In this document: positions 17,882 to 32,523 of the stretch, one piece after another
Numbering within the stretch: the stretch's first letter is position 1
Layout of the letters: each line of letters begins with the position of its first letter
Origin: Acidobacteriota bacterium
Lineage (GTDB): Bacteria; Acidobacteriota; Vicinamibacteria; Vicinamibacterales; CAVVIG01
Assembly: GCA_003222455.1 (NCBI GenBank)
Contig: QHWF01000011.1
Location: 1-32,641 of the forward strand
DNA length: 32,641 nt
Reading direction: 5' to 3'
Position numbers and translations under genes: made by a program
Notes under the pieces: generated by a model
Seen by the model: only the letters and a program-made list of their open reading frames with translations
What the model was told of the DNA's origin: nothing
Database searches by the model: none

Positions 17882-19254
17882 CGCGAGGCGGCCTCGCGGC
17901 GGCCAAGGCTTTCGAGCATCCGCTCGATGGCGGCAATGTCTTCCACATTCGCCGAGGCATAGCGCTGTTGCGCGCGCGCCATCCCCGAGAGGTGCTCCTC
18001 GACGGTGGTACCGGCGACAAGCACGCCGAAATCGACAGGGAGTTTCTGGGCACCTTCGGTCTGGAAGATCCGGTCCATGAACATGTAGCCGACTTCGGTC
18101 TTGAAGTGAATGCTGTCGGCATAGAGGCGGAAGCCGGCGCGGCCCGTAGGCAAGTCGACGACGGGATCGGTGGTCACGCTCGTGTACCCGCCAAAGTCCC
18201 ACAGCGGGTAACGACGCTGGCCTGGATGCGTGTTGGCATCCTGCTCGAGAATGGCCGCCAGCCCACGTTCCCATTCGACGAACTGCGGCCACCATCCCAT
18301 CAGCCGAATCGCCTCGTACGATCGCGCGTGATGAGGCGAGAGATAAAACCGCAGGTCGACGCCGTGCGCGCGGGCAACCGACACCAGCCGGCGCATGGCC
18401 TCCAGAGAGGACCAGCCTTCGTTGTCCACGAACCGGAATGGCTGACCGGGCACGGGATAGATGCCGGCAATGATGACCCGGTCGCCATCGATCATCCCTT
18501 GCAGGAACTTGGACCGAGAGACGCGGTCGGGCGGTGCGGGTGGCGGGGGCGCGCCCTCGGCCGGACGCGGTCCGGGACCGACGCCTATCCCGAAATTGGG
18601 TCCGGTTCCCTTGAACCAGGTTCGCTCTGCCCAGAGCGACCCCGCACGCTGAACGAGCGGCTCCCAGAGTTTCGCTTGTGACGCGTACGTGTAATCGGCG
18701 GTGAACAGGCGCTGCCCGACAAACCGCGCCAGATCGCGGCGATAGGAAGGGCGCTGCGCCAGCGGAAGATCGAAGAACCCCGGCGACGTGGGCTTGTCGG
18801 CGGCGAACATATAGAACTCCAGCCCGATCACGGCCCGCCTCGGCGGGTGCAGCGCGACAACATGTTCGAACGCGGCCAGGAGCTCGCGGATGCTGACGCC
18901 CGGTAAGCCGAAGTTGTAGGCGGGCCGACCGTCGGCGTCCCGCAGCGGCGCGTAGCCGGAGTCGACGTACGACCAGACTGTTGAACTGCCGAACACCACT
19001 GACTGTGGCGCGTAGAATGCCACGTTCAGCATCTTCGCCTCGCGCGTTCCGTGTGGCACCGGCCAGGCGCCGCCGGCCGCCAGCGACAACTCCACCGCCG
19101 TCGGGTTCGCCGGGCGCCATCCGGCGACGCGGGCGTACCCAAGCGGGTCCATCACGATGTTCACGGTGGGAATGCTGCCCAGCAGAGCAGCGACCGCGAC
19201 GCCCATGGCGAACATGTACCGTCGGCCTTCCGGAGCGTCAGCGATCGTGCTCAA
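17878..19254 (-). CDS. Membrane-anchored SGNH/DltD-like partner protein of the MBOAT acyltransferase
   Basis: ORF 17878..19338. Candidate starts are TTG 19254 (TTGA overlap with the MBOAT stop) or ATG 19215. The amino-acid conservation ADAPEGRRYMF / ADSPQARRYMF with the paralogous fragment, upstream of that ATG, favours 19254. It has a single N-terminal TM helix, a block-I-like VVFGSST and a block-V-like YADSIHF (DxxH). Confidence 0.7.
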   Translation of the reverse strand: MSTIADAPEGRRYMFAMGVAVAALLGSIPTVNIVMDPLGYARVAGWRPANPTAVELSLAAGGAWPVPHGTREAKMLNVAFYAPQSVVFGSSTVWSYVDSGYAPLRDADGRPAYNFGLPGVSIRELLAAFEHVVALHPPRRAVIGLEFYMFAADKPTSPGFFDLPLAQRPSYRRDLARFVGQRLFTADYTYASQAKLWEPLVQRAGSLWAERTWFKGTGPNFGIGVGPGPRPAEGAPPPPAPPDRVSRSKFLQGMIDGDRVIIAGIYPVPGQPFRFVDNEGWSSLEAMRRLVSVARAHGVDLRFYLSPHHARSYEAIRLMGWWPQFVEWERGLAAILEQDANTHPGQRRYPLWDFGGYTSVTTDPVVDLPTGRAGFRLYADSIHFKTEVGYMFMDRIFQTEGAQKLPVDFGVLVAGTTVEEHLSGMARAQQRYASANVEDIAAIERMLESLGRREAASR

Positions 19255-20831
19255 AACTGGTAGTACAGAAACTCGCTCGGCTTGGTCAGATTCAGCAGGG
19301 CAATCGTGAACAACACCGCTGCCACAACGGCCCACCACAGCGTGGGCCGCCAGCTGATTCTGGAAGCGACCGCACGGTCATCGCTGCCGGCGCGCTGCAA
19401 GACGACGTCGAAACGACCCATGATTTCCAAGCTGTTAGGCATCCACAGCACGATCGGCAGGAGGGCCGCGATCCAGAGGCCCACCGGAATGATCGACGCC
19501 TGCATGGCCGGCTCGAATCTAACGCCGGCGCTCGCAAGCCACGTCCCGATCGATCCCAGTGCCGCGCGGTCGCCTTCGAACAACCTGAAACCGTTCATCC
19601 CGGCCATTCCAGACCACACGCCGCAGGCTCCGGCCAGCGTGGTCGATCGAAAAAAGACCCAGGCGACCACGACGGCTGCGAACGTCACCGTTCTGGAAGC
19701 GAAACGTCCCGAAAGGGTCGACCGGGACAGATCAGCGCCGAAGGCGGCGCGCAGCGATCGCCAGCCGTGATTCACTACGAGAAATATCCCGTGCAGACCG
19801 CCCCAGATGACGAATGTCCAGCCCGCCCCGTGCCACAGTCCACCAATGAGCATCGTCACGAGCAGGTTGACATACCGGCGGAATGAACCCCGCCGATTGC
19901 CGCCGAGTGGCAGGTACAAGTAGTCCCGCAGGAATCGCGAGAGCGTCATGTGCCAGCGACGCCAGAACTCGATGATGTTGACCGCCTTGTAGGGCGAATT
20001 GAAGTTCGCGGGGAATCGGACGCCGAACATGAGCGTCAAGCCGACCGCCATGTCCGAATAGCCGGAAAAGTCGAAGTAGAGTTGCAGCGTATAAGCAAGC
20101 GCACCCGCCCACCCGTCGAAGAAGCCGACGGGAACTCCCAGGCCGGACTTCGTGAACACCGACATGGCGTTGGTTGCGGCCACGTAGTACCCGATGCCGT
20201 CCGCAAGCACGACTTTCTTGAACAGCCCCATGGTCAACATCGCGGAGCCGGAGGCCATCGCCATCCAGTTGAACCTGGACGCCGCAGCAGTCGCAAACTG
20301 GGGCATGGTCTCCTTGTGATGGATGATCGGACCCGCAATCAAGTGAGGGAACCACGTCACAAACAGCAGGTAGTGCAGCGGGTCCTGCTCGCGCGCCTCC
20401 GAGCAGTACGTATCGACGATAAAGGCTATCTGGGTGAAGGTGAAGAACGAGATACCAAGTGGCAGCACCACGTCGACACGTGTGAGGTGCCAACCGGTCA
20501 CTGTATTGACGCTTGAAACGAAGAAGCCGTAGTACTTGAAGTACCCGAGAAGCACCAGGTCGGCGGCAACGGTGGCGCCCGCGAGCCATTTGGCGATCGT
20601 CTTCCGGCGTCGTCCCTGGCTTCGTACGATGGCCCGGCTCATCGCGTAGTTGAACGCCGCTGATCCCAGGAGCAGCGGGACATATCGGATGTCCCAACAA
20701 CCGTAGAAAAACACCGACGCCAGGACGAGCACGACGGTTCCCAGACGGGGTTTCGCACGAGCCACCAGAAAGAAGCCCAGCAGGGTCGCCGGCAGAAATG
20801 CGAAAAGAAACGAATAGGAGTTGAACAGCAT
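19251..20831 (-). CDS. MBOAT-family membrane-bound O-acyltransferase (AlgI/DltB/PatA-like)
   Basis: ORF 19251..20831, 526 aa. It has the canonical N-terminus MLFNSYSFLFAFLPATLLGFFL, plus FNSPYKAVNIIEFWRRWHMTLSRFLRDYLYLPLGGNR and the conserved His region LIGGLWHGAGWTFVIWGGLHG. Confidence 0.9.
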   Translation of the reverse strand: MLFNSYSFLFAFLPATLLGFFLVARAKPRLGTVVLVLASVFFYGCWDIRYVPLLLGSAAFNYAMSRAIVRSQGRRRKTIAKWLAGATVAADLVLLGYFKYYGFFVSSVNTVTGWHLTRVDVVLPLGISFFTFTQIAFIVDTYCSEAREQDPLHYLLFVTWFPHLIAGPIIHHKETMPQFATAAASRFNWMAMASGSAMLTMGLFKKVVLADGIGYYVAATNAMSVFTKSGLGVPVGFFDGWAGALAYTLQLYFDFSGYSDMAVGLTLMFGVRFPANFNSPYKAVNIIEFWRRWHMTLSRFLRDYLYLPLGGNRRGSFRRYVNLLVTMLIGGLWHGAGWTFVIWGGLHGIFLVVNHGWRSLRAAFGADLSRSTLSGRFASRTVTFAAVVVAWVFFRSTTLAGACGVWSGMAGMNGFRLFEGDRAALGSIGTWLASAGVRFEPAMQASIIPVGLWIAALLPIVLWMPNSLEIMGRFDVVLQRAGSDDRAVASRISWRPTLWWAVVAAVLFTIALLNLTKPSEFLYYQF

Positions 20832-20834
20832 GCG

Positions 20835-22832
20835 TCAGAAGCAGTCGGGGTTGCCGGCAATCCAGGACTCGTGCCACAACACCGCGTTCAGCACGGTCCA
20901 GAGGTGAAAGCTGTAGCCGCCGTTGCCGTCCATCTGGCGCTGCAGCAACTCGCTGAAGTAGGTGTTGTCGAAGAAGCCTTCCTTCTTGAGCACCGATCGA
21001 TCGAAGGCGGCCTGGCAGCGGCGTCCGAAATCGCCCTCGCGAAACCACTCTTCCATCGGCGCCCCGAAACCCTGTTTCTTGCGGTACACGAGATCGTCGT
21101 CCAGATAAGGCGCTGCGGCCTTCTTCAGGAGGGCTTTGCCCACGCCGTTCTGCAGCTTGTAGGACGGGGGCAGCTTCGTCGCGAACTCGACGACGTCGTG
21201 ATCGAGAAACGGCACTCTGGCTTCGATGGAATGTGCCATGGTGAGCTTGTCGACCCGCATCAACAGGTGTTCCGGTAGCCGCAGTTTCATTTCCATGTAC
21301 GGAATCTTCTGCAGCACTTCCGGCTCCACCAGCTTTCCATCGAGGCTGCCGAGATACTCGCGCACCACGGCGTGACTGTCGCGCACCGTGTGACCATGCG
21401 GCATCAGGCCTTCGACGGGGCACTCGACAGCCTGCTCGAACGGAGCCGTGCATGGCGTGAGCGACCCACGCATCTGACCCCACCAGCACACCGCGCCGCC
21501 CCAGAACAATTCCTGGCCGGCTCTGACGCGATTGATGATCTCGAGATCTTCCCCGCTGACGCCTGGAACGGCCGCCCTGGCTCTCGTCCGAAACATCTGC
21601 CACCAGCCCGGCGTCTGCCGCGCCGGTCGGTACACGTCCTCATACTTCTGGCGATAGTGCTCGCACCACCAGTACCCGAGAAAGCTCTCGTCGGCGCCCT
21701 CTCCCACCTGGACGACCGTCGTGCCGCACTGCTTCACGAGCCGCGCGAGAAAGTAGAGCGGGATGCAGACGTTGTCGGCGATGGGCTCGTCCTGCAACCG
21801 CACCAGCAGCGGCAGAAAGTCCTGCGCCTCCTGCCGGCTGATGAGCGTCTCGTGATGGTCCGTCCTGTAGCGCTCGCTCACGCGCCGGGCAAACTGGAAC
21901 TCGTTGTAGTCTTCCTTCCCTTCGTACCCGATCGTGAACGTCGTGACTGGGCGCGTCATCAACTCGCTCATCAGCGCCACGTTCAGCGAAGAGTCCACGC
22001 CGCCTGACAGCAGCACACCGAACGGCACGTCCGACACCATCCGGCGGGCGATGGACTGCTTCATCAGCCGCGTGAGCTCCTGCACCGCTTCGTCTTCGCT
22101 CAGGTCCTGCTCACCGAGCGTCCTGGCCGCCGCCGGTTTGCAATCCCAGAACTGCCGGGCGGTGGCGCGTCCGTGATGATCGATGGTGACGGTGTGGCCC
22201 GCCGGAAGCTTGAAGACATTGCGAAAGAGTGTCATCGGGGCCGGCGTCACGATGAACGTGAGGTAGTGCCAGAAAGCGGTGAGGTCCATTTCGGCCGATA
22301 CCTGGGGATGCGCGAGCAGCGCGCGGATCTCCGACGCAAACAACCATTCCCCGGCGGCCGTCTTCGTGAAGTAGAGCGGCTTGATGCCCACGCGGTCACG
22401 CACGAGGTGAAGCAATGGCCGGCGATCGCGGGCATCGTAGATCCCGGCGGCAAACATGCCGCAGAACTGCTGGAAGCAGTCCAGGCCCCATTCTTCGTAG
22501 GCATGCAGCAGCACTTCGGTGTCCGAGTGATCGGTCTTCCACTCGTATTTTCCGATCGCCGCCAGTTTCAGCCTGAGCTCGGCGTGGTTGTAGATCTCGC
22601 CGTTGAACGTGACAGCCACGGTTCCCGCGGCGTTCAGCATCGGCTGCGCGGCGGCGTCAGACAAATCGATGATCGACAGGCGTCGGTGGCCGAGCGCGCA
22701 GCGACGGTCCGGAGAGAGCCACAGGCCGACACCGTCGGGACCGCGATGGGGCATCCTGTCCCGCATCGCCTCCACGATGTCGGCTCGACACTCGCCGCCG
22801 AGGGGTTTGAAGCTACCGGCGATTCCACACAT
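20835..22832 (-). CDS. Asparagine synthase (glutamine-hydrolysing) family amidotransferase
   Basis: ORF 20835..22832, 665 aa. It has the N-terminal nucleophile MCGIAG, HRGPDG, FNGEIYN, and the PP-loop SGGVDSS in the synthetase domain. Confidence 0.9.
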   Translation of the reverse strand: MCGIAGSFKPLGGECRADIVEAMRDRMPHRGPDGVGLWLSPDRRCALGHRRLSIIDLSDAAAQPMLNAAGTVAVTFNGEIYNHAELRLKLAAIGKYEWKTDHSDTEVLLHAYEEWGLDCFQQFCGMFAAGIYDARDRRPLLHLVRDRVGIKPLYFTKTAAGEWLFASEIRALLAHPQVSAEMDLTAFWHYLTFIVTPAPMTLFRNVFKLPAGHTVTIDHHGRATARQFWDCKPAAARTLGEQDLSEDEAVQELTRLMKQSIARRMVSDVPFGVLLSGGVDSSLNVALMSELMTRPVTTFTIGYEGKEDYNEFQFARRVSERYRTDHHETLISRQEAQDFLPLLVRLQDEPIADNVCIPLYFLARLVKQCGTTVVQVGEGADESFLGYWWCEHYRQKYEDVYRPARQTPGWWQMFRTRARAAVPGVSGEDLEIINRVRAGQELFWGGAVCWWGQMRGSLTPCTAPFEQAVECPVEGLMPHGHTVRDSHAVVREYLGSLDGKLVEPEVLQKIPYMEMKLRLPEHLLMRVDKLTMAHSIEARVPFLDHDVVEFATKLPPSYKLQNGVGKALLKKAAAPYLDDDLVYRKKQGFGAPMEEWFREGDFGRRCQAAFDRSVLKKEGFFDNTYFSELLQRQMDGNGGYSFHLWTVLNAVLWHESWIAGNPDCF

Positions 22833-22852
22833 GGTGTTCCGTTGCCCCTGAA

Positions 22853-24178
22853 TCAGCTGTGGGTTTTTCCTGAATTCCGGCGCAAGAGTCGCTTAACGAC
22901 CTCGCTGGGCGTGGCATCGAAGGCCGCCTGGAGATCGCCGAGCCGATCGTTGAGCCTGCCAAGCTGATCGTTCTGCCGCGCGATCGTCTGATCGCGTGTT
23001 GCGATCTCCTCATACAGCCGGGCGATGGTGCGATCGCGTTCCTCGACCGCACGATTCCGCTCTTCCTGGAACTCCGCCAGCAGGCGATCGCGCGTCGCGA
23101 CGTCGGCCTGCAGCTGGACCAGCAGCGGCTCCCGTTCAAGGTCGGCCAGCATCTGATCACGAACTACCACCTCGTGCTGCAGCTGCGCCAGCAACGGCTC
23201 CCGGTCGACGAGATCGTCAGCCTGAAACTCCGGACTGTCGTGCCGCATGGCTTCCCAGTGGCGTTCCGTCTCGACGAACAGCGTGCGCCACTCGGGGGCG
23301 GGGCCGGTGGCGGTCGTCGTCTCCCCGCGGCGGGACAGCGTCGTGATGTACTCGCGCTGCGTCGGGTCGGCCAGCATTTTCCAGAAGTTGGTCACGTCAC
23401 GGCCACTGAGCTCCGGCTGCTCATAACAGCTATAGCTGTACAACTCGATCGCCTTCACCTCGTGACCGACTTCGTTCAGCATCCACGCGACTTCAGGCGC
23501 GGTGTATTCACGGTGATGCCCTTCGTACGGAATCGGCGAGTAGAACTGCGCGGCCAGAGGCGGCCACACACTCTCGCCCCGCGCAAGTGCCTGACGCTTG
23601 TAGAGGTGCGCGAGGTTCGGGGTGTCGATCACCAGATGACCGCCCGGCTTCAGCACACGATTGATCGTGGTCAGCAATCCAAGAGGCGTATGAGGCACGT
23701 GCTCGATCACGCCGGCGCACAGCACCACGTCGTAGCCGCCATCAGGCAACCCCGCCAGAGCCCGGCCTGCGTCGTCGAAGTCGAGCAGCCGAATGCCGCG
23801 ACTCCGCATGAGCGACAACGGCGGTTCAAGCGTGCGTGCATACGTGCGATAGGCATCGACCGCATCGACGTCGAAACCCAGATCCGCGAACATGCCTGAA
23901 AAATTGCCGAAGTACGCGCCGTAGTCCAGCAGGCGTCCCTGACGGACGCCTGCGCGCCTCAGCGCGCCGGCCGCATGAATCATTCGCGCAATGCTGCAAC
24001 GGAGATAGTTGGACCAATCGTTCTCCCTGAGCGCCGGCGAATGACGCTCCAGGGCATCGTAAGACAGCCCGTGGATCACGCCCAGCACGCGATCCACCGC
24101 TGCGATGGCGACGGGCAGCTCCTCCGGGAAGTCGTCCGCGAGACACGCGGGGAAATGAAGGTCGAGCGTCTCGTTCAT
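22853..24178 (-). CDS. Class I SAM-dependent methyltransferase with a ~110-aa C-terminal coiled-coil tail containing tandem repeats
   Basis: The track ORF is 22853..24199. ATG 24178 overlaps the ABC ATPase stop (ATGA). MT motifs are RLLDYGAYFGNFSGMFADLGFDVDAVD, YDVVLCAGVIEHV and LKPGGHLVIDTPN. The tail reads DREPLLAQLQHEVVVRDQMLADLE / REPLLVQLQADVATRDRLLAEFQ / EERNRAVEERDRTIARLYEEIATRDQTIARQNDQLGRLNDRLGDLQ. Confidence 0.8.
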   Translation of the reverse strand: MNETLDLHFPACLADDFPEELPVAIAAVDRVLGVIHGLSYDALERHSPALRENDWSNYLRCSIARMIHAAGALRRAGVRQGRLLDYGAYFGNFSGMFADLGFDVDAVDAYRTYARTLEPPLSLMRSRGIRLLDFDDAGRALAGLPDGGYDVVLCAGVIEHVPHTPLGLLTTINRVLKPGGHLVIDTPNLAHLYKRQALARGESVWPPLAAQFYSPIPYEGHHREYTAPEVAWMLNEVGHEVKAIELYSYSCYEQPELSGRDVTNFWKMLADPTQREYITTLSRRGETTTATGPAPEWRTLFVETERHWEAMRHDSPEFQADDLVDREPLLAQLQHEVVVRDQMLADLEREPLLVQLQADVATRDRLLAEFQEERNRAVEERDRTIARLYEEIATRDQTIARQNDQLGRLNDRLGDLQAAFDATPSEVVKRLLRRNSGKTHS

Positions 24179-25947
24179 GACGAACCAACCAGGCCCCAAT
24201 CGGCCTCAGAGACCTGAAGCGTACCGCGGCCGATCAGGCCCGAGCCCTCCACCGCGAACTCAAACATGCGGGAGATACAGCAATAGACCTGCTCGTTGAT
24301 GGAATAAAACACGGTTTGCTCGCGATCGTAGTAACCCTCGCTGGAAATCATGATCGTGACGGAGTAGTGGCCATCGGTCAGCATCAGCCGGGGCACTCTG
24401 AGCCGAATCGTGCCGCTGCCCCGTTCCCTCGCACGGAAGCACAGATTTCTGCTGATGAAGCGGCAGACGTCCAGCACGCCTTCGCGATGGATGGCCACGA
24501 CGACCTGCGCCCGTTCGTCCAGCTTCGGGTCGGCGATTCGGTAGCCGATTTCCAGAGTGGCGAGCTCGCCATGACGTAAAAAGAACGCGGCCTGCCCTTC
24601 CGCATCGACAAAGCCCGCTTGGGTCACGCTGATGGCGCCGCTTCCCTGGACGCCGGCCGTGTTCAGGACAACGGCCTCGCTCCGCGACTGAAACGCGGCG
24701 AATGGGACGGACAGCGTCGCGGTAGCCCAGCGCCCGACTTCTGCCGGCAGTGCGCCAAGCCTTGCCGCACGGTCATCGACATGGGCACTCACGACGACGT
24801 CAGCGGCTTCGTCCATCCAGAACTCGATTTCAACCTCGAGAAGGGCGTCACGATCCAGCACCGCCGCCGGCACCGGATAGACGGCGGCCACTTTGTGAAA
24901 AGAACTGCCGTAGTTGAGGAAGGGCCGCGCCGATCGTCCCTGCCAGTCGGTGTTCTCGCCCCACCCCCCGCCCGCGCGTTGCAAATGCGGTTTGTCGGGC
25001 TCGTCAAACGGCGTCACGGCCGGCTCAATCGAGCTTCTGTATTTTTCAATGACAACAGACAACGACCGCAGGTAGAGGGGCGACGGCAGGGGACGATTGT
25101 CTCGACTCTGCAACTCGATGATCATGTGCCGCACGGGAGCAACTTCGATGGGCTCCAGCTGCTTCAACCGTTCCTGCTGCTTCATCCGCAGGCGATTCTC
25201 CTCTTGCAGGCGGATCGAATCTTCGTAGGCTTTCACGACCGATGGTGCAGCCCCATCCATCAGCACGCGACCGCGGTCGATCCAGACGACGCGGTTGCAC
25301 ATCTTGACGGCCGAGTAGATGTCGTGGGTGACCAGCAGCAGCGTCGTACCCTGCCGGTCACACAGATCCCGCATGCGTTGGTAGCTTTTTGATGCGAAGT
25401 ACGCGTCTCCAACGCCCAGAATTTCGTCGAGCACGAGCAGCTCCGGCACAATCGCCGTCGCCGTGGAAAACATCAGTCGTACGCCCATCCCGGAGGAGTA
25501 GGTCTTCACCGGCTGGTCGATGTACTCCTCGAGCTCGGCAAAGTCGACGATCTCCAGGTATTTCGCCTCGGCCTGCCGCCCGACGACACCGAGTTGCGCG
25601 AGATACGCAAAGACATTCTGCCGGCCGGTGAAATCGGGATGAAACCCGGTGCCGATCTGCAACAGGGCGTGCGCGTGGCCCTTCACATCGATCGCGCCCG
25701 ATGACGGCTCAATCACTCGCGTGATCAGCTTGAGCAGCGTGCTCTTCCCGGCGCCGTTGCGGCCGATGATCGCCACCTTCTCGCCGCGGCGAATCTCCAG
25801 GTTGACGCCATCGAGCGCTGCGTGCTCAGTGTAGGCGCCGCGCCGTTTGCCCAGCATCCCGAACATGTCGAGGAAGCGGTAGCCCGGTCCCGCGTACAGC
25901 CGGTACACCTTGCTCAAATCGCGGGCTCGAATCACCGTGTCGTTCAT
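24175..25947 (-). CDS. Wzt/TagH-type polysaccharide-export ABC transporter ATP-binding protein with a ~340-aa C-terminal extension
   Basis: ORF 24175..25947, 590 aa. It has Walker A GRNGAGKST, the signature YSSGMGVRL, Walker B LLVLDE and an H-loop VTHD. The early motif KVYRLY...F.DMFG is typical of Wzt/TagH. A short coiled segment (QEENRLRMKQQERLKQLE) follows, then two beta-rich regions. The last ~150 aa (FLRHGELATLEIGYRI...VVVAIHREGVLDVC...LTDGHYSVTIMISSEG) resemble the Wzt C-terminal glycan-binding sandwich. Confidence 0.88.
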   Translation of the reverse strand: MNDTVIRARDLSKVYRLYAGPGYRFLDMFGMLGKRRGAYTEHAALDGVNLEIRRGEKVAIIGRNGAGKSTLLKLITRVIEPSSGAIDVKGHAHALLQIGTGFHPDFTGRQNVFAYLAQLGVVGRQAEAKYLEIVDFAELEEYIDQPVKTYSSGMGVRLMFSTATAIVPELLVLDEILGVGDAYFASKSYQRMRDLCDRQGTTLLLVTHDIYSAVKMCNRVVWIDRGRVLMDGAAPSVVKAYEDSIRLQEENRLRMKQQERLKQLEPIEVAPVRHMIIELQSRDNRPLPSPLYLRSLSVVIEKYRSSIEPAVTPFDEPDKPHLQRAGGGWGENTDWQGRSARPFLNYGSSFHKVAAVYPVPAAVLDRDALLEVEIEFWMDEAADVVVSAHVDDRAARLGALPAEVGRWATATLSVPFAAFQSRSEAVVLNTAGVQGSGAISVTQAGFVDAEGQAAFFLRHGELATLEIGYRIADPKLDERAQVVVAIHREGVLDVCRFISRNLCFRARERGSGTIRLRVPRLMLTDGHYSVTIMISSEGYYDREQTVFYSINEQVYCCISRMFEFAVEGSGLIGRGTLQVSEADWGLVGSS

Positions 25948-25955
25948 CGCGAGGC

Positions 25956-27608
25956 TTACCGAACCCGATCCGCCGGCGCGTCGAACCAGCCGAGGTGAGT
26001 GATCCGGAAGTCGTTATCTCGCCGGCCAGTCGGCAGGCAATGCGCGACGACCACGGTGTACTCCCCAGTCGTCGGCGGTTGCCATATGATCGTGAAGGGA
26101 CCCGGCACATCGACATTGTCGTAGTGCACCCACTGATTCTGCCGCTGCACGCCGACCGTCACACATCCGCCGATCAGGGCGCCCGTCGCCATCAGCACCT
26201 TGTTTGGTGTACCCGGTCCAGCACGGGAAGGCCGGGTCATGATGACGTACGCGGTCGGCGTGGCTGCCTGGCCTCTGACAGTGAAGACGCCGTTGTCGAC
26301 TTTCACCACGGGATCGATCCACGAGGTTTCCGCCTGGCCCAACGGATGAAACGACGGTCCCTCAAAGCGCGGTAGTGGAGCGAGCGAGACCGCGGCCACC
26401 GCGCGCGCCTGCCCGACGCGTCTCGTGACGAGGTTGTCGCCCAGCTGTCCGTAGAATCCGAATCCCCAGGTCCAGACCGTCCCGTCGGACTGGAGCGCCA
26501 GCATATGTGAATAACCGGACGCGATCGCGACCACGGAGCTGACGCCCACAGCCTTCACGGGCCGGCTGCGCGGCTCCCATGTCCCGTCGTCCAACTGTCC
26601 GTAGAGGTTGTCTCCCCAGGTCCACACCTGTCCGTCGCTCGTCAGGGCGGCTGAATGATCTTCTCCCGCTGCGATCATCGTGACGTTTTGGAGTCGCTCG
26701 ACCGCAGCGGCTGCCGGCTCGTCCGCAGCAGCCGTCGGCGACGGCAGACTGTCCGGCCGTTTGAATCCCGGCGGTTGAAAGGGCGTCATCATCTGACGAT
26801 CGACGCTGCTCATCACGGAAGACCTGCGACCGAGCTGACCGAACGCATTACCGCCCCAGGTCCAGACGGTGCCGCCTCTCACCAACACGAGCGTATGGAA
26901 CTGGCCCGCGGCCACGGCGACCACATCGCGCACCGCTGAAACTTCGACGGGCACAAGTCGAAGTCTCAGGACGGCGTCACCGAGCTGGCCGTGTGTGTTT
27001 TGCCCCCACATCAACACGCGTCCGGTTCGTACGACGGCTGCCGAGTGGTAGAACCCTGCGGCAATCGCGGATACATTCGATACGCCCTGGAGGCGCAGAG
27101 GTCGAAGACTCTCCGTCGTTGTCCCCGAGCCGAGCTGGCCGTAGTGATTGTCGCCCCACGCCCACACGGAGCCATCCGCGCCGAGCGCCATCGAGTGGAT
27201 GTACCCCGCCGCGATCCCCACGATGTGGTCGAGGCCGGCCACACGTGCCGGCACGGTGCGCAACGTGCGGCTGCCGTCGCCAAGCTCGCCCCACAAGTTG
27301 TCTCCCCAAGCCCACACCGTTCCGTCGCTTCGCAACGCGAGCGTGTGGTTGGAGCCAGCGGCGACAGCGGTGACGTCGAAAAGATTCTTCGCCCAGGCGC
27401 GGCCAACGGTTTCGTATCGACTCCTCAGCGCTCCATCTCCGGCTTGTCCGTATAAGCCAGACCCCCAGCTCCACACCGTACCATCGGGTCTGACGACGAC
27501 CGAATGCAGCTCGCCACCAGCCAGAACAGCCGCCGACGCGAACGCGCACGGTAACGCCGCCGCGACAGCGAGCGCGAGCGCGCCGCGCCTGAGCACGAGC
27601 CAGACCAT
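25956..27608 (-). CDS. Secreted seven-bladed RCC1-repeat (beta-propeller) protein with an unassigned ~140-aa C-terminal domain
   Basis: The track ORF 25956..27638 starts at a TTG. I prefer ATG 27608 (MVWLVLRRGALALAVAAALPCAFASAA, a Sec-type signal peptide with AFA-S). Seven repeats have the form H(S/T)xAL..DG.VW.WG.N..GQLGDG. Confidence 0.85.
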   Translation of the reverse strand: MVWLVLRRGALALAVAAALPCAFASAAVLAGGELHSVVVRPDGTVWSWGSGLYGQAGDGALRSRYETVGRAWAKNLFDVTAVAAGSNHTLALRSDGTVWAWGDNLWGELGDGSRTLRTVPARVAGLDHIVGIAAGYIHSMALGADGSVWAWGDNHYGQLGSGTTTESLRPLRLQGVSNVSAIAAGFYHSAAVVRTGRVLMWGQNTHGQLGDAVLRLRLVPVEVSAVRDVVAVAAGQFHTLVLVRGGTVWTWGGNAFGQLGRRSSVMSSVDRQMMTPFQPPGFKRPDSLPSPTAAADEPAAAAVERLQNVTMIAAGEDHSAALTSDGQVWTWGDNLYGQLDDGTWEPRSRPVKAVGVSSVVAIASGYSHMLALQSDGTVWTWGFGFYGQLGDNLVTRRVGQARAVAAVSLAPLPRFEGPSFHPLGQAETSWIDPVVKVDNGVFTVRGQAATPTAYVIMTRPSRAGPGTPNKVLMATGALIGGCVTVGVQRQNQWVHYDNVDVPGPFTIIWQPPTTGEYTVVVAHCLPTGRRDNDFRITHLGWFDAPADRVR

Positions 27609-27622
27609 TGAATGGAAAGAGG

Positions 27623-30580
27623 TCAGATGCCGAGCCAACCGAGATGGGTTATCTGGAAGTCGTTGTCCGGACGATCGTCCGGCAGACAGTGTGCGATGAC
27701 GATGACGTATTCACCTGTCGTCGGCGGGGGCCACCGGAGCGTAAACGGTCCGTGCCGATTGAAATTCTTGTAAAAGATCCATTGGTTGCGCTCCTGGACG
27801 CCAACCGTGACACATCCGTCGTTCAATACGCCCGTCGCGACCAGGACCTGGCGATCCTGGTCCGGACCGGCCCTGGACGGCGACGCCATGATCACGTAGG
27901 CCGTCGGCGATTCAGCCTTGCCCTTGACAAAGAACGAGCCGTCTTTGAATTGCACGATCGGAGCGGCCCAGGCCGTCTCTGCCCGGCCCACGGAGTGAAA
28001 AGAGGGCGCGTCGAAGCGGGGCCCCGGCACGAGCGAGAGCGCGGCGATGGTGCGCGGCCTCGCGACACGTCGCGTCGAGGTATTGTCACCAAGTTGTCCG
28101 TCGCTGCCGAATCCCCACGTGAAGATCGTTCCGTCGGATTTGAGCGCCAGCACATGCGCATGTCCCGACGCGATCGCCGTCACGGATCCCACGAGCGCTG
28201 CTCTCACCGGTCTGCGGCGAACGTCCCAGGTCCCGTCGCCCAGTTGCCCGTAGAGGTTGTCGCCCCACGTCCAGACCTGACCGTCGCCGGTCAGCGCAAC
28301 GGAGTGATCTTCACCCGCCGCAACCATCGTGACTCCGTGGAGACCAGGCACGACGGCCAGAGTCAGCTCGTCTGGATGACCACTCGAGGAGGCCGTCATT
28401 GGATCGCGACCGAGCTGTCCAAACGTGTTGCCGCCGCAGGTCCACACGGTGCCGTCGCTGCGCAGCACGAGCGTATGAAACTGGCCGGCCGCAACGGCCG
28501 CCGCGTCGCCCGCCGGCATGACGTCAACGGGAATCGCGCGCGGCTGACGTAGCCCGTCACCAAGTTGTCCGTGCTTATCGTCCCCCCAGGTCCAGACATG
28601 TCCGGCGCGATCGACCGCGGCCGAGTGAAAAAAGCCGGCGGTAATCGTCGTGGCGGTCGGGAGGCCCTGCACCCGGATTGGTTTGAGACTGACTGACGTC
28701 GCCCCGGATCCGATCTGACCGTAGTGGTTGTCACCCCACGCCCACAGCGAGCCGTCGTTCGCGAGGGCCATCGAGTGAATATACCCGGCGGCGATCGCCA
28801 CGATGTGGCCGAGACCGGGCACCTGCGTGGGAACGTCGCGCGAGGTGCGACTACCGTCGCCAAGCTCACCCCACAAATTGTCTCCCCACGCCCACACGGT
28901 GCCGTCTTTCCTCAGCGCCAGCGTATGGTTCCCGCCAGCCGCAACAGCGATGGCGTCAAACAGATTCTTCGCCGGCGCGCTGTCGGCCGTCGTATGGTCG
29001 GTGACACCGTCTCCGAGCTGTCCCAACGAGGCGGAACCCCAGCTCCAGACCGTCCCGTCCGGTTTCAGCACGACGCTATGCATCTGTCCCGCTGCCATCA
29101 CGGCCGCATCCGACCGGGGCGAGTGAAGAGCGGCCGCCAGGCCGCAAGCAGCCACAACGGCTCTGCGGCGCGTGAGCAGAAGCGCCAGACGCCGAGTGGG
29201 TTCCACGATCCCAATTGCGGCAAAGGCGAAGAGGCAGCCGTACGCCGGGACCGTCTTTCGGAGCTCTACGTAGAACACAAGACTGAACGCGATGAGAAAC
29301 GCGCTCGGGGCGACGGCCAGCACCGCCGCCGTCGCGGCGGCCCTGCGTGTCAGAACCACGCCGATGCCGATGAAGACGAACACGGCGACGACGGGTAACG
29401 CCGCATCGGCGATGCCGAGCCATTTGCGTAGAGTTTCACGCGCCTCCGGGGGGTCGCTCGGCGTGTATATGCCAGAGGCGGAAACCTGCGCGACGCTCAG
29501 CAGCCGAGGCAGTCGCAATTCGACAAGATTCGTAAGGTGTCGAGTGAATCCAGGCGACGGCACAACCGAGTAGAGAATGAAATCGCGAGTCGTTGCCGCT
29601 TGCTGCCCCGCGTTGCAGCCGGTGCAGTTCTCCTCAATCCAGTTCCAGTAGTATTTGTCGTCGAAGCCCAGGCCCCACGGATTGGGCAGCTCGCCGAACG
29701 ATGCGTATGCGAGCTGCCAGAAGCCGCCACGGACAAAGCTGAACTGACCGAACATCCGACTGTTGCGCATCGCCCACGGCGTCAGCACGAGGTACACGAG
29801 CACCTGCGCCGCCAGAAAGTACGGAACGAGCCTGAGAGCACGACCGTCGAGAACCGCGGCCGCGATCGCGGCGGCCGTGACGACGAGCGGCAGCGTGATG
29901 CTGGTGCTGTTCATCGCCGCACCGCAGAACGCAGCGCCGGCGATCAGCAGGGCCGCGCCCCATGGCCGGCCGCCGTCACGCAAGCGATCCCACGCCCCCA
30001 CCGCACCATAGGACGTGGCCAGGAACCAGAAACTATCGGTCGAGGCCGCGACGGTGAGATTGGCCAGGAATGCATGGGCCGGGGAGACGGCATACAGCGC
30101 CGCCCCCACGAGACCAGCGGCCGAAGACCACAACCGCCGGCCGATGCCGAAGACAAAGAGACACCCCGCCGCATCCAGCAGCGCCTGCATCCGCTGGGAA
30201 TACGCGTAACGGAGGTGCCCTCCAAGCCAATAGCTGATCGCGAACCACACCGAGTATCCAGCTGAATGTGCCGATCCGGGATACACGATCACACCGGGCT
30301 TTTCGTCATCAACCGGCAGCAGTTCCTCCAGATCGACCATGGAGGGGCGGTTCTCCTGTGCCCTGGCGGCGCGGTCCACCATGTCTGCATTCGCCACCCA
30401 GCCGCGTCCGGCGAGCAGGTTCCGGCCCATCTCCGCGTCCGCGAGCGTCAAGCCGGCAACCCACGGCGCTCCCGGCCGGTAAGCATGAAGAAGCCACAAC
30501 CGAAAACCTACGGCAACCGCGAAAATCACGGCAAGGCACGCGACCGTCAATTTCGTCAGCGGCTTGAGAGAGGCGCTCAT
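27623..30580 (-). CDS. Fusion protein: ArnT/PMT-like GT-C membrane glycosyltransferase domain (~480 aa) + seven-bladed RCC1 propeller + the same C-terminal domain as the downstream paralogue
   Basis: ORF 27623..30580, 985 aa, with ATG 30580 overlapping the upstream stop (ATGA). After TM1, the first loop carries ADAEMGRNLLAGRGWV, compared with the ArnT-type DE..Y....REML.SGDWV motif. Many helices follow. A signal-peptide-like last helix, RRRAVVAACGLAAALHSPRSDAAV, sits directly before the RCC1 repeats. These repeats are closely similar (roughly two-thirds of positions by eye) to those of the 25956..27608 protein. Confidence 0.8.
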   Translation of the reverse strand: MSASLKPLTKLTVACLAVIFAVAVGFRLWLLHAYRPGAPWVAGLTLADAEMGRNLLAGRGWVANADMVDRAARAQENRPSMVDLEELLPVDDEKPGVIVYPGSAHSAGYSVWFAISYWLGGHLRYAYSQRMQALLDAAGCLFVFGIGRRLWSSAAGLVGAALYAVSPAHAFLANLTVAASTDSFWFLATSYGAVGAWDRLRDGGRPWGAALLIAGAAFCGAAMNSTSITLPLVVTAAAIAAAVLDGRALRLVPYFLAAQVLVYLVLTPWAMRNSRMFGQFSFVRGGFWQLAYASFGELPNPWGLGFDDKYYWNWIEENCTGCNAGQQAATTRDFILYSVVPSPGFTRHLTNLVELRLPRLLSVAQVSASGIYTPSDPPEARETLRKWLGIADAALPVVAVFVFIGIGVVLTRRAAATAAVLAVAPSAFLIAFSLVFYVELRKTVPAYGCLFAFAAIGIVEPTRRLALLLTRRRAVVAACGLAAALHSPRSDAAVMAAGQMHSVVLKPDGTVWSWGSASLGQLGDGVTDHTTADSAPAKNLFDAIAVAAGGNHTLALRKDGTVWAWGDNLWGELGDGSRTSRDVPTQVPGLGHIVAIAAGYIHSMALANDGSLWAWGDNHYGQIGSGATSVSLKPIRVQGLPTATTITAGFFHSAAVDRAGHVWTWGDDKHGQLGDGLRQPRAIPVDVMPAGDAAAVAAGQFHTLVLRSDGTVWTCGGNTFGQLGRDPMTASSSGHPDELTLAVVPGLHGVTMVAAGEDHSVALTGDGQVWTWGDNLYGQLGDGTWDVRRRPVRAALVGSVTAIASGHAHVLALKSDGTIFTWGFGSDGQLGDNTSTRRVARPRTIAALSLVPGPRFDAPSFHSVGRAETAWAAPIVQFKDGSFFVKGKAESPTAYVIMASPSRAGPDQDRQVLVATGVLNDGCVTVGVQERNQWIFYKNFNRHGPFTLRWPPPTTGEYVIVIAHCLPDDRPDNDFQITHLGWLGI

Positions 30581-32523
30581 AGCGGTGTTTCCAGCGGAAT
30601 CCTCAGCCGTTCAAACCAGTCCCGGGTGCGCCAGTCCGCTGGCAGCAGCAGATCCAGCCAGAGCCGCTCGCTCGAGTCCTGGCGCATCGTCGAAACCGAT
30701 TGCACTGTGTCGGCGTCTTGCGCGCTCATCGCCAGACCGTCGAAGACATGCGCGGCGCCATATTGATAGATGGGCATCATCAGCGTTGATGTGCTCCCCG
30801 AGGCCGAGCAGGGCTGGCTGAACGTGTGGTCCCAGACGGCATTCGGCGGCCGATACGTGGCCGTCACGCTGATCGGTCTGCCATCTCGACATCTGAACTT
30901 GGCGACCAGATAGTCGCTTGTCATCTCGTCGGCTTTCCCGCTGGACCGGCGGTCGCGCAGGCTGATCCCCTCGACCCGCAGCATCACTCGGTCGGGTTCA
31001 TGTGCGGCACGAGCCACGTGCCGCTCGTCGAGAAGCATTTGCTCGTAGCACTCCACGAGACGCAACATTCGGTTCTGCTGATAGGCCCTTGCAGAGGCAA
31101 GCGCAGCCACAGCGCACACGCCGATGAGCGACAGACAGAGGACCGCCCGGAAGGCTGGCTTGGCGAAGCGGGCCCAAGCGTCCCCGAACGCGTTCGTGTC
31201 CAGCATCGCCCGACCCGCCAGCAGTATGGCCTGCGTAAAGAAGCCCGCCAGCCACCAGGAAATGAACTCGAGATGAAAGAAATGCCGGCGTTGGAACACG
31301 AGAGAGACGTAGGCAGAGAGAAACACCGCGACAAAGGCGATGAACCATCCCGCTCGCAGATCCCTGGCAAAAACAAGAAAGAGGCCCGCCACAGGGATCA
31401 ACACGCCCAGGCCGCTCAACTGCAACACCCGGATCGTCGCGGCAATGACGCGCAGCACGAGGTCGCCCGGGAATGTCGTCCAGAAGTCCGTGAGAAGACG
31501 CGTCGACACGTCCTGCATCTCGCGGCTGAAGAAATAGACGGTTGCCGTCGTACCAAGCACGCGATGTCCGTAGCTGTTGATGAGGACCGTGATGTGGCTG
31601 TCGTCGAAGACCAGTCCGTAGTCGTAGAGCGGGCTCACGGCGTGCATGGCCTCGGTCGCCCAGTCCTGGCCGCCAAGGACTTGAACAGCAAACAGGCTGC
31701 CTGCGGGCCCGAAGAAATTACGGTAGATCATGGTCCCGCCGCCGATGGCCACGCCGGCAATGACGCAGAGCGTTGCCAACGCCTTCCTGGACGATCCACC
31801 GGGATTCCGCCGGACGAAGATGAGTGTGGTCGCGAGGGCGAGCGGCACGGCGGCCATCACGTCAGTCTTGAATCCGATGCCGAATCCAGCCGCGAGACCC
31901 GATGCCAGCGCCGGCGCCCAGAGGGACTTTCCCTGCGCGTCGCGGCGAACGACGACGCCGCACAACGCCACCGCGGCGAGAATCCACGGCGCCTTCTCGT
32001 ACTCAATCGGCAGGCCCGTTGCCCGGAGCTGCAAAGGCGACCATACAAGTCCCGCCGTGCACGCGAGCGCGATGACCCGCCACATGCCGAGGCGGAACAT
32101 GAGGTAGGCAATCGCGCCGGTCATCGCAAACATCCCCGATTGAAACGTGATGAAGCCGTTGATCGTCGGCCCGACGATCCGAAACCATGAGCTGAGGGCA
32201 CGATGAAAGTACTCTTGACGCTGCCAGGAGATGCCGATTTCGATGAGAGGCATTCCGGCGATGGCGCTGCACGGAAAATACTCCACCTTCTGCGCGAGGA
32301 ACGCCTGCCATTGTGGCAACGCTTTCACCGCGACCGGGTCGGGCACCCAGCCTGGCCGCCCAGTGCAGGGCACCAGGAGATCTTCAATCCACGGAGCGTC
32401 GTGGTAGTAGGGCTGCAGATGGCGGCGCGCGACGCCATAGGCGACCATCGCCACTACCACGGCCAACGCGATGTCGATCGCCAAGGGCGACCGGAGCGCC
32501 CGCCGCACCGCCGAACCGGTCAT
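30577..32523 (-). CDS. Large polytopic membrane protein (648 aa) with a ~170-aa C-terminal soluble region; function unknown
   Basis: The track ORF is 30577..32628. ATG 32523 (MTGSAVRRALRSPLAIDIALAVVVAMVAYGV) has AAGG 6 nt upstream. The upstream 35 codons from GTG 32628 stay open with fairly high GC3, so a longer N-terminus is possible. The layout is TM1, a ~90-aa loop, at least 10 hydrophobic helices, and then a soluble tail. Confidence 0.7.
   Translation of the reverse strand: MTGSAVRRALRSPLAIDIALAVVVAMVAYGVARRHLQPYYHDAPWIEDLLVPCTGRPGWVPDPVAVKALPQWQAFLAQKVEYFPCSAIAGMPLIEIGISWQRQEYFHRALSSWFRIVGPTINGFITFQSGMFAMTGAIAYLMFRLGMWRVIALACTAGLVWSPLQLRATGLPIEYEKAPWILAAVALCGVVVRRDAQGKSLWAPALASGLAAGFGIGFKTDVMAAVPLALATTLIFVRRNPGGSSRKALATLCVIAGVAIGGGTMIYRNFFGPAGSLFAVQVLGGQDWATEAMHAVSPLYDYGLVFDDSHITVLINSYGHRVLGTTATVYFFSREMQDVSTRLLTDFWTTFPGDLVLRVIAATIRVLQLSGLGVLIPVAGLFLVFARDLRAGWFIAFVAVFLSAYVSLVFQRRHFFHLEFISWWLAGFFTQAILLAGRAMLDTNAFGDAWARFAKPAFRAVLCLSLIGVCAVAALASARAYQQNRMLRLVECYEQMLLDERHVARAAHEPDRVMLRVEGISLRDRRSSGKADEMTSDYLVAKFRCRDGRPISVTATYRPPNAVWDHTFSQPCSASGSTSTLMMPIYQYGAAHVFDGLAMSAQDADTVQSVSTMRQDSSERLWLDLLLPADWRTRDWFERLRIPLETPL

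Follow-up and report, generated by a model that had tools for sequence, protein, structure and literature searches.

A long Wzt-type ATPase with an additional beta-sandwich and no adjacent wzm gene

The Wzm/Wzt transporters are a model for the export of complete polysaccharide chains by bacteria and for the checking of their caps. The nucleotide-binding domains (NBDs) of Wzt, RfbE, TagH and TarH all partner ABC-2 permeases. A stretch of 32,641 nucleotides from an Acidobacteriota bacterium (hereafter the window) carries a gene for a Wzt-type ATPase with no adjoining permease gene, and this raises the question of the membrane partner, if any, of this protein. An earlier note on this DNA had treated the missing permease as exceptional and had proposed that it is encoded beyond the right edge of the window or that the ATPase works with one of the large membrane proteins encoded nearby. 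The analysis reported here indicates that the ATPase is most likely part of a normal Wzm/Wzt exporter whose permease gene lies elsewhere.

The ATPase and its domains

The ATPase gene and the parts of its product are the following:

24175..25947, minus strand: long Wzt-type ABC transporter ATPase, 590 aa (ORF; Pfam ABC_tran and Wzt_C; PDB relatives)
25213..25947, minus strand: NBD, residues 1-245 (motifs in the translation; alignment to 6amx/6m96)
25159..25212, minus strand: conserved linker helix, residues 246-263 (AF2 model; consensus SIRQQEExRLRLKKQ)
24703..25134, minus strand: family-specific middle beta-sandwich, residues 272-415 (AF2 pLDDT 92-93)
24187..24648, minus strand: Wzt_C-type carbohydrate-binding beta-sandwich (CBD), residues 434-587 (Pfam and Foldseek)

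Pfam recognises ABC_tran at residues 45-175 (8e-20), and the catalytic motifs are complete in the translation: Walker A GRNGAGKST (62-70), Q-loop Q97, signature YSSGM (150-154), Walker B LLVLDE with the catalytic Glu (170-175) and H-loop H208. In comparisons with PDB sequences, these motifs align with those of the Aquifex aeolicus Wzt, and a conserved N-terminal segment, YRLYAGPGYRFLDMFG, pairs with the N-terminal part of the A. aeolicus NBD. In the PDB, residues 6-242 find their closest relatives in the A. aeolicus Wzt NBD (E 1.6e-50), in mycobacterial RfbE and in TagH/TarH. The 11 best matches, with E values from 1.6e-50 to 2e-35, belong without exception to Wzt, RfbE, TagH or TarH; another class first appears at 1e-25. 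The protein thus carries a Wzt/TagH-type NBD of ABC-2 glycan exporters. The top NCBIfam models, galactan Wzt/RfbE and TagH, score 142-169 bits, below the equivalog cut-offs of 320-538 bits (NF050108, 169 vs 400 bits; NF010065, 167 vs 538). The ATPase therefore belongs to a distinct subfamily, outside the equivalogs of characterised transporters.

Past about residue 245, the protein continues for ~345 aa, roughly twice the length of one Wzt CBD. The AF2 model of this extension (pLDDT 93) comprises a helix (246-263; residues 2-19 of the model), a sandwich (272-415) and a second sandwich (439-587). Column conservation in the family alignment reaches 0.85 for residues 241-260, in the region of the linker helix. 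The C-terminal sandwich matches Pfam Wzt_C (PF14524) at residues 434-566 (9e-9, 35.8 bits for a gathering cut-off of 30.4), and its top Foldseek matches are the Wzt CBDs 6o14, 8dky, 5hno/5hnp and 2r5o (E 7e-6 to 8e-4 over about 145-169 aligned columns).

The middle sandwich carries the near-invariant motif W-G...(G)R..RP.LNYGS.FHK. It matches nothing in Pfam or NCBIfam, even at E<=1, and a fold search with its AF2 model returned no PDB match at E<1e-3. Among 1.84 billion representative proteins, 116 match it; almost all share the same architecture, and the match lies mostly at positions ~268-435 of proteins of ~580-620 aa. A tandem of Wzt_C domains arising by duplication of the CBD was rejected: hhalign of the middle sandwich against the Wzt_C region gives a probability of 0.2%, and the middle-domain model alone retrieves no Wzt CBD, nor does the domain have a Pfam match. 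With this hhalign value and no PDB match, the middle region does not correspond to a known Wzt accessory domain. It could act as a spacer, a dimerisation module or a second ligand-binding module.

These results agree with the earlier reading of the protein. The Wzt/TagH-type NBD that it recognised is borne out by Pfam ABC_tran and by the PDB and NCBIfam relatives; its extension of ~340 aa, about double a Wzt glycan-binding domain, is close to the ~345 aa measured; and its division into a short coiled segment and two beta-rich regions, only the last resembling Wzt_C, is reproduced by AF2 and Pfam. The structure prediction that it proposed for residues 270-430 gives a confident beta-sandwich at 272-415.

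More than 100 full-length homologues of the 590-aa ATPase (53-80% identity) were retrieved, so that the architecture is not unique to the window. They define a distinct 'long Wzt' subfamily, with an NBD, a linker helix, a subfamily-specific beta-sandwich and a Wzt_C CBD, and its members come mostly from metagenomes of soil and groundwater; named relatives belong to Vicinamibacteria (58% identity) and Microcoleus (56%).

Neighbouring genes and the search for a permease

The genes around the ATPase gene are the following:

20835..22832, minus strand: AsnB-like glutamine amidotransferase, 665 aa (Pfam GATase_7 and Asn_synthase)
22853..24178, minus strand: class I SAM methyltransferase of 441 aa whose C-terminal tail is rich in heptads (Pfam Methyltransf_23 at 70-248)
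25956..27608, minus strand: secreted RCC1-repeat protein, 550 aa (Pfam RCC1, RCC1_2, WD40_RLD)
27623..30580, minus strand: 985-aa protein, polytopic in its N-terminal half, with an RCC1 domain (Pfam, transmembrane scan)
30577..32523, minus strand: 648-aa polytopic membrane protein, p648 family (transmembrane scan)

A GT2 fragment and a GNAT gene lie at the left edge of the window. As the earlier note had stated, the upstream RCC1 gene stops 8 nt short of the ATPase start codon, and the stop codon of the ATPase gene interlocks with the start codon of the methyltransferase gene that follows it (tcATGAac). Of the 40 loci in which 1 kb or more of downstream sequence is available, 23 have a homologous methyltransferase gene directly downstream of the ATPase gene. 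Sequence comparison gives only a generic class I similarity for this enzyme, with no specific match to WbdD; its tail has a weak Pfam SlyX match at 389-432 and, by a crude score, a heptad peak at residues 384-423. It is a candidate chain-terminating, capping enzyme. The AsnB-like gene recurs as the third gene of the module, after those of the ATPase and the methyltransferase (L007, L009, L010, L013, L014, L024 and L064; L007 comes from assembly GCA_964359505.1). RCC1-type proteins were found among the loci only in the L007 lineage, as membrane-anchored forms of 976 and 1,026 aa and one other related ORF, and, as more distant relatives, in L011; the RCC1 gene upstream of the ATPase gene is a lineage-specific insertion.

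No permease was found in the window, as the earlier note had claimed. A six-frame transmembrane scan detected only the 841-, 526-, 985- and 683/648-aa proteins and a degenerate 250-aa fragment, an HMM of the Wzm of this subfamily has no match at E<=1, and ABC2_membrane is absent from the Pfam results on the plausible genes. Of the two profiles that the note had proposed to search, Wzt_C is therefore found in the ATPase and ABC2_membrane in none of the plausible genes. The large membrane proteins might conceal an ABC-2 domain, but the same Wzm HMM (E<=1) and Pfam found none; in the 985-aa protein, too, neither gives any ABC-2 signal. The N-terminal part of this protein and the 841- and 445-aa proteins match nothing in Pfam or NCBIfam, even at E<=1. 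The p648 copy of the window has no Pfam or NCBIfam match either; of 12 family members, three match PMT_2 weakly (best 7e-4) and one is TMEM260-like, and p648 is probably a GT-C-type glycosyltransferase.

Linkage of wzm and possible partners of the ATPase

In 25 of the 31 loci with enough upstream sequence, the sampled flank (about 1.6 to 10 kb upstream) carries no wzm. The subfamily thus mostly lacks an adjacent wzm, and the absence of a channel gene beside this ATPase gene is the usual state, not the exception that the earlier note had assumed. A conserved 272-aa Wzm (ABC2_membrane) is encoded directly upstream in five loci, from Microcoleus (L010), Nitrospinota (L011), L017, L051 and L054, and 5.5 kb downstream of the long Wzt gene in L068. 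A Wzm (P0184) and a long Wzt (P0092, a 56%-identical relative outside the window's own clade) are encoded on one 145,941-bp contig, more than 10 kb apart. In three further loci (L071, L072, L073), the order is Hepar_II_III, Wzm, AsnB, GT4, with no ATPase gene within 10 kb. Among the 120 Wzm matches listed of 1,101, none could be placed on a contig of P0004, P0006, P0007 or P0060, the closest relatives, and P0092 was the only long Wzt for which one could. These comparisons point to the 272-aa Wzm as the ancestral cognate partner of the long Wzt.

The orphan state could be a contig-edge artefact, with wzm in the same operon just outside the sampled DNA. Indeed, the window ends only 13 nt upstream of GTG 32628, the longest possible start of the 683/648-aa gene that is the first of the run, and in L068 a few kb separate the Wzm gene from the long Wzt gene of the cluster. 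However, a contig of the same strain (L004, 99.5-99.9% identity) reaches 1,453 nt past the right edge, and this extension encodes a hexapeptide acyltransferase (Hexapep) and a GFO/IDH/MocA oxidoreductase (GFO_IDH) and no wzm. A permease just beyond the right edge, the first of the two alternatives of the earlier note, is thereby refuted for the next 1.45 kb, and no wzm adjoins the window there in the same operon. Furthermore, four related loci (L007, L009, L013, L014) lack wzm over 10 kb on each side of the ATPase gene, and the left edge of the window holds the GT2 fragment and GNAT gene mentioned above. An edge artefact is therefore unlikely.

The NBD itself bears on the nature of the partner. 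Among 35 family members of full or nearly full length, 32 have an NBD 70-83% identical to that of the window; lower values were found in two Wzm-linked members (61-62%) and in two others (69%), and the Wzm-linked L010, L017 and L068 are 74-78% identical to the window. Between Wzm-linked and unlinked members, a single position differs among the 152 conserved at at least 80% in both groups, which makes the two groups of NBDs essentially indistinguishable at the sequence level.

It is likely that the ATPase is a subunit of a Wzm/Wzt (ABC-2) exporter of a capped undecaprenyl-linked glycan, with wzm elsewhere, and we infer a Wzm in the genome from which the window comes. In this model, the glycosyltransferases of the cluster would polymerise the glycan in the cytoplasm and the translationally coupled methyltransferase, with its coiled-coil-like tail, would cap it according to a WbdD-like logic, the chemistry of the cap being presumed. 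The capped end would then be bound by the C-terminal CBD and the chain pushed through the Wzm channel by the dimeric ATPase. The wzm gene would lie outside the ATPase operon, either farther off in this glycan region, which is very large, or at a separate locus; the contig of a related bacterium with unlinked wzm and long wzt genes offers a model for such a distance. Of the two hallmarks of capped glycans, the locus displays a Wzt_C domain on the NBD and, as a candidate for the second, an adjoining methyltransferase with a heptad-like tail according to the crude heptad score.

Other membrane proteins recur beside the long Wzt genes. In the closest clade (L009 and L013, 75% identity), an LPG_synthase_TM/TIGR00374 (flippase-like) gene overlaps the ATPase start, exactly in the position of wzm in cyanobacteria; such a gene lies directly upstream in L064 and L070 and two genes upstream in L007. 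The p648-family genes, present in 16 non-redundant loci, are frequent neighbours of long Wzt genes, directly upstream in L024, L026, L040 and L057, and absent from all six Wzm-containing loci. The model with Wzm acting in trans leaves unexplained the LPG_synthase_TM overlap in L009/L013 and the p648 position directly upstream in many loci.

These arrangements would fit a swap of partners, in which the ATPase energises in cis a protein that is not an ABC-2 permease, such as LPG_synthase_TM or the 648-, 841- or 985-aa protein. However, no ABC NBD is known to couple to such folds, and neither LPG_synthase_TM nor p648 is a universal neighbour, since LPG_synthase_TM is absent from the window and p648 from L009, L013 and the P0092 contig. 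Nothing sets the NBD apart from that of Wzm-coupled members, its N-terminal segment and Q-loop region included, and orphan cognate Wzm genes exist. As the p648 family repeatedly, although weakly, matches GT-C models (PMT_2, TMEM260) and gives no ABC-2 signal, pairing with a large membrane protein, the second alternative of the earlier note, is disfavoured; a swap of partners is decidedly unlikely. A variant, in which the long Wzt would dock through its extra sandwich onto LPG_synthase_TM or p648 where the adjacent wzm was lost, is compatible with the anti-correlation of p648 and Wzm within loci and with the confinement of the middle domain to the subfamily. We regard it as very improbable; if true, it would represent a new type of ABC-energised glycan export or modification system.

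The ATPase could also function without any permease, as a soluble or peripheral protein that senses the glycan cap and regulates or scaffolds chain termination, the sandwiches being its core. The absence of a permease in cis, the translational coupling with a methyltransferase and not with a membrane protein, and the extra subfamily domain devoid of characterised relatives in PDB or Pfam would all suit such a role. Nevertheless, the NBD is 70-83% identical across most of the family with intact catalytic motifs and has the same conservation pattern as in Wzm-linked members, and no other NBD suggests itself for the Wzm genes that are orphan in their turn. A free ATPase would not be expected to conserve in this way the parts that solved Wzt structures show in contact with the permease, and this possibility has very little likelihood.

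The long Wzt proteins, most likely subunits of Wzm/Wzt exporters, leave the general picture of ABC-dependent glycan export unchanged. They break two textbook expectations: a structurally unmatched extra sandwich lies between the motor and the cap-binding domain, and the gene of the channel is usually not linked to that of the ATPase. In annotation, this means that the absence of an adjacent permease gene in such genomes does not amount to the absence of a transporter, and that lone ABC2_membrane genes following Hepar_II_III-type genes probably encode partners of long Wzt ATPases. The middle domain is a defined target for studies of mechanism and could be either a spacer altering the reach of the CBD to the channel or a second ligand-binding site.

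Comparison with known systems

The A. aeolicus WzmWzt O-antigen transporter (6amx, 6m96, 7k2t, 8dku) aligns with the NBD over residues 6-242, including the N-terminal segment and YSSGM. The fold of its CBD (6o14, 8dky) matches the C-terminal sandwich (E 7e-6, target TM about 0.7), at a sequence identity of only about 12-14%. The full-length A. aeolicus Wzt chains in the PDB have about 370-404 residues, with a single CBD after the NBD, whereas the ATPase described here inserts a helix and a 145-aa sandwich and has no linked wzm. According to the title of entry 8dky, the A. aeolicus CBD was solved with bound 3-O-methyl-D-mannose, which fits the methyltransferase adjoining the ATPase here.

The Wzt proteins of the O9a/O8/O12 systems have about 430-450 aa. 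Those of Escherichia coli O9a/O8 and Klebsiella/Raoultella O12 (2r5o, 5hno, 5hnp) match the CBD fold at E 1e-5 to 8e-4, and their genes sit in wzm-wzt pairs, unlike the ATPase gene here. With these systems and their WbdD- or WbbB-type terminators, the locus shares the same logic, a CBD on the NBD and a coiled-coil terminator in the cluster (here a candidate), although the resemblance of the methyltransferase to WbdD is that of generic class I enzymes. This pair of capped-glycan hallmarks was reportedly described by Mann, Kimber and Whitfield in 2019. A CBD on the NBD together with a terminating enzyme carrying a coiled coil is also given as the hallmark pair of capped glycans in PMC11231755.

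TagH/TarH (7dd0, 6jbh, 9cfl) and the mycobacterial galactan RfbE/Wzt (9qfx) belong to the same NBD subfamily (E 1e-35 to 1e-46). Only the NBD part of TagH aligns (profile positions 5-254 of 549). The C-terminal extension of the Bacillus subtilis TagH, likewise long, is of another kind. RfbE has no CBD, whereas the ATPase here carries a Wzt_C CBD.

Dispersed wzm and wzt genes are known in cyanobacteria, for example slr0977 and slr0982 of Synechocystis. Unlike these, the cyanobacterial member of the long Wzt subfamily (Microcoleus, L010) has adjacent wzm and wzt genes, and the systematic unlinking within the subfamily concerns members from soil and groundwater metagenomes, those with a name being Vicinamibacteria and Vicinamibacterales.

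The ATPase and its extended C-terminus

The ATPase gene begins 8 nt after the end of an RCC1-repeat gene; at its other end, the stop codon and the ATG of the following gene overlap (tcATGAac).

24175–25947, minus strand: long Wzt ATPase ORF, 590 aa

Pfam recognizes ABC_tran at residues 45–175 (8e-20) and Wzt_C at residues 434–566 (9e-9, above the gathering score), with no match between the two. The best PDB sequence match of residues 6–242 is the nucleotide-binding domain (NBD) of Aquifex aeolicus Wzt (6amx, 6m96, 8dku; E 1.6e-50), with RfbE of the mycobacterial galactan exporter in second place and TagH and TarH behind it; the nearest other class of ABC ATPases stands at about 1e-25. The NCBIfam models of galactan Wzt/RfbE and TagH give 169 and 167 bits, and all NCBIfam scores are far below the equivalog cut-offs. 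The catalytic motifs, read from the translation, are complete (GRNGAGKST, Q97, YSSGM, LLVLDE, H208). Because of these matches and intact motifs, the protein description in the earlier note, including the Wzt/TagH-type NBD, is correct. The ATPase belongs to the Wzt/TagH NBD family, whose mode of working it shares, and bears a genuine Wzt_C domain, but it is not an equivalog of any curated transporter.

The extension (residues 245–590), modelled from an alignment of 118 homologues (pLDDT 93, pTM 0.86), comprises a helix (246–263), a beta-sandwich (272–415) and a second beta-sandwich (439–587), in agreement with the double-length extension, coiled segment and two beta-rich regions proposed previously. 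In a Foldseek comparison with the PDB, Wzt carbohydrate-binding domains (CBDs) rank first (E 7e-6 to 8e-4, about 145–169 aligned columns), namely those of A. aeolicus (6o14, 8dky), the O12 transporter (5hno, 5hnp) and E. coli O9a (2r5o). The middle domain predicted in isolation is equally confident (pLDDT 92) and finds nothing in the PDB at E<1e-3, nor any meaningful TM-score, and its profile–profile comparison with the C-terminal region gives a probability of 0.2%. Therefore, it is the last domain that accounts for the CBD matches, the only beta region that the earlier note had considered Wzt_C-like. The middle domain was accordingly dropped both as a second Wzt_C, no duplicate being detectable, and as a known accessory domain, given the lack of any PDB or Pfam match.

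Searched against 1.84 billion representative proteins, the middle-domain profile yields only 116 matches, almost all at about residues 268–435 of proteins of 580–620 aa; this domain is therefore confined to the long Wzt subfamily. One motif in it, W-G...(G)R..RP.LNYGS.FHK, hardly varies. The shorter matching proteins look like fragments, whereas a few have 730–1,058 aa (P0244, P0248, P0252, P0255, P0279, P0284, P0290 and P0299) and therefore carry extra C-terminal domains beyond the CBD.

Gene content of the window and its edges

A six-frame hydropathy scan of the window reveals no more than five multi-helix ORFs, which encode proteins of 841, 526 (MBOAT), 985 and 683/648 aa and a degenerate 250-aa fragment. 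ABC2_membrane is absent by Pfam from all plausible window genes, and an HMM of the Wzm partners of the subfamily has no window match at E<=1. The ATPase gene has no adjacent permease gene, as the earlier note had remarked. Its suggestion of a permease encoded past the right edge is not borne out over the next 1,453 nt: a contig of the same strain (L004, 99.5–99.9% identity) reaches 1,453 nt past coordinate 32641 and encodes there a hexapeptide acyltransferase and a GFO/IDH/MocA oxidoreductase, with no wzm immediately past the edge, a finding that would have counted against the observation of the earlier note. That the operon includes a wzm at a somewhat greater distance, a reading that in part falls under the model preferred below, is unlikely.

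At the left edge (1–960, minus strand), a GNAT-type acetyltransferase gene runs off the window, accompanied by an N-terminal GT2 fragment (VVPVLNEAGNI...IIFVDDGS) that ends about 100 residues into the domain and is possibly a pseudogene. The segment 7358–8714 (minus strand) is a mosaic of gene remnants: a 198/250-aa ORF has a start (RRYMF...NIVMDPLGYAR.AGWR) like that of the 445-aa protein, matches to the family of the 841-aa protein lie in two frames that overlap (E 1e-49 to 1e-59), and the end of a 245-aa ORF resembles the NUDIX protein of 5636–6211. The mosaic has the appearance of a degraded copy of the segment encoding these three proteins. A 1,254-aa ORF (15356–19120, minus strand) was rejected as an artefact, since high-GC DNA here happens to lack stop codons over a long distance; on identical contigs, the genes called include the 841-aa membrane protein at 15356–17881 instead, and the 445-aa gene overlaps its start in a different frame.

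Bacterial RCC1 proteins are unusual within a glycan cluster. RCC1-repeat (beta-propeller) paralogues are encoded as follows:

25956–27608 and 27623–30580, minus strand: window
L007:7061–9991 and 18018–21098: related locus

In the window, one form is secreted (550 aa), the other (985 aa) is fused to a polytopic N-terminal half, and they share a similar C-terminal tail of about 130 aa. Among the surveyed loci, the paralogues occur only in the clade of the window and L007; a Nitrospinota locus (L011) has an RCC1-like ORF after the ATPase (9032–12004). L004 compared with window 22485–28173 has an identical ATPase, 0.5% divergence and indels that affect the RCC1 genes, whose predicted products in L004 have 839, 135 and 548 aa versus 985 and 550 aa. 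This discrepancy reflects either strain microdiversity or an assembly error concentrated in the repeats.

Neighbourhoods of the long Wzt subfamily

A search of 5.8 billion proteins gave more than 100 full-length homologues (577–620 aa, 53–80% identity), conserved end to end including the middle domain, whose source names include Vicinamibacteria, Vicinamibacterales, Microcoleus, Symploca and Allocoleopsis. The extended architecture is a family trait. Neighbourhoods were taken from the encoding contigs and from 56 metagenome loci found by a C-terminal-only alignment. In Microcoleus (L010), the ATPase start lies within the end of an ABC2_membrane gene (273 aa), and methyltransferase and AsnB genes follow the ATPase. 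This cognate Wzm, of which five copies share 43–56% identity, is also found directly upstream in L011, L017, L051 and L054; the L068 copy is 5.5 kb downstream of the ATPase and has the same orientation. Wzm is absent from the available flank (up to 10 kb in several loci) in 25 of the 31 non-redundant loci with enough upstream sequence. Lack of an adjacent permease is therefore the common state of the subfamily, and not the peculiarity of the window that the earlier note implied.

In Wzm-less loci, the gene directly upstream encodes a flippase-like LPG_synthase_TM/TIGR00374 protein (L009, L013, L064, L070), a relative of the 648-aa window protein (p648 family; L024, L026, L040, L057) or, elsewhere, a glycosyltransferase.

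L009:9042–10004, L013:9042–10004, L064:8220–9185, L070:4114–5367, L007:4210–5124: LPG_synthase_TM gene
Window 30577–32523 (minus strand), L024:6800–9178, L026:2974–5235, L040:111–2192, L057:2223–4304 and others: p648 family gene

LPG_synthase_TM (PF03706; TIGR00374 48.7 bits, above the cut-off) fills the cyanobacterial wzm slot, shares 4 nt with the start of the ATPase gene in L009 and L013, the closest relatives, and is absent from the window's strain; 2-oxoacid dehydrogenase E1 and E2 genes precede it in L007, L009 and L013. Neither Pfam nor NCBIfam has a model for the p648 family. Its genes accompany long Wzt in 16 loci, in many of them as the immediate upstream neighbour, and are missing from all six Wzm-containing loci; an Asp near the N-terminus (D17) is conserved in the family, and G209, G213, G215, G217 and D221 are among the invariant residues. 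Although this gene order supports a switch of the ATPase to the flippase-like protein or to a large polytopic protein, neither candidate is a universal neighbour, p648 matches GT-C models weakly but repeatedly (of 12 members, three match PMT_2 and one a TMEM260-like model), which suggests a GT-C fold, and the NBD is unchanged relative to Wzm-linked members. Such a swap is very unlikely, and use of a non-Wzm membrane partner by long Wzt proteins of lineages lacking an adjacent wzm is highly improbable.

Indeed, the NBD of the window shares 74–78% identity with those of Wzm-linked L010, L017 and L068. Among 152 positions conserved at >=80% in both groups, among them those of the N-terminal segment YRLY..P.YRF.DMFG and of the Q-loop region, a single one differs between Wzm-linked and unlinked members (a conservative I/M exchange), so that, at the level of sequence, the ATPase domain is without sign of a changed partner. 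In a neighbour-joining tree, some Wzm-linked members branch off at the base (L011, L054) and others lie nested among the rest (L010/L017, L068), so that adjacency is probably ancestral and unlinking secondary.

A probable unlinked Wzm and a putative capped-glycan pathway

At E<1e-30, the cognate Wzm profile matches 1,101 proteins; soil metagenomes are the source of many of those listed, and one is named from Acidobacteria. One JGI contig of 145,941 bp carries both a Wzm (P0184) and a long Wzt (P0092), in separate glycan-synthesis neighbourhoods, each outside the 10-kb flanks of the other. Three further Wzm contigs (188–708 kb) share a gene order in which Wzm stands between a heparinase II/III-like gene and an AsnB-like gene followed by GT4, and the 10 kb on either side of Wzm contain no ABC ATPase gene. 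These four contigs show that mutually orphan Wzm and long-Wzt genes occur in the same kinds of genomes. Around the orphan Wzm genes (L071:10001–10819, L072:10001–10819, L073:10001–10822 and the P0184 contig), the order is strongly conserved: ADH/GFO fusion, GT1-methyltransferase fusion, heparinase II/III-like, Wzm, AsnB-like and GT4 genes, then methyltransferase, DegT, GFO and Hexapep. The upstream order is that of Microcoleus L010, where the long Wzt directly follows Wzm.

The protein thus likely powers a Wzm/Wzt exporter, with the gene for its Wzm located elsewhere, and its neighbours fit a capped-glycan pathway. The ATPase would drive export using a Wzm from another locus, presumably present in this genome; the SAM methyltransferase would cap the glycan chain, and the CBD of the ATPase would read this cap. 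Translational coupling links the methyltransferase to the ATPase, and a homologue lies directly downstream in 23 of the 40 loci with enough downstream sequence. The tail of the window methyltransferase is heptad-rich according to a weak Pfam match to SlyX and a crude heptad score. That the ATPase senses the cap independently of any permease is hardly to be expected.

The ATPase represents a long-Wzt subfamily of its own, set apart by an inserted domain that is uncharacterised and by genes that are usually not linked to wzm. Mann et al. (2019) reportedly regarded a coiled-coil terminating enzyme together with a Wzt CBD as hallmarks of capped glycans. Published hallmarks are likewise a terminating enzyme with a coiled coil and a CBD on Wzt (PMC11231755), and dispersed export genes were previously noted in cyanobacteria (PMC4390846). 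The CBD of A. aeolicus was crystallised with 3-O-methyl-D-mannose (title of 8dky).
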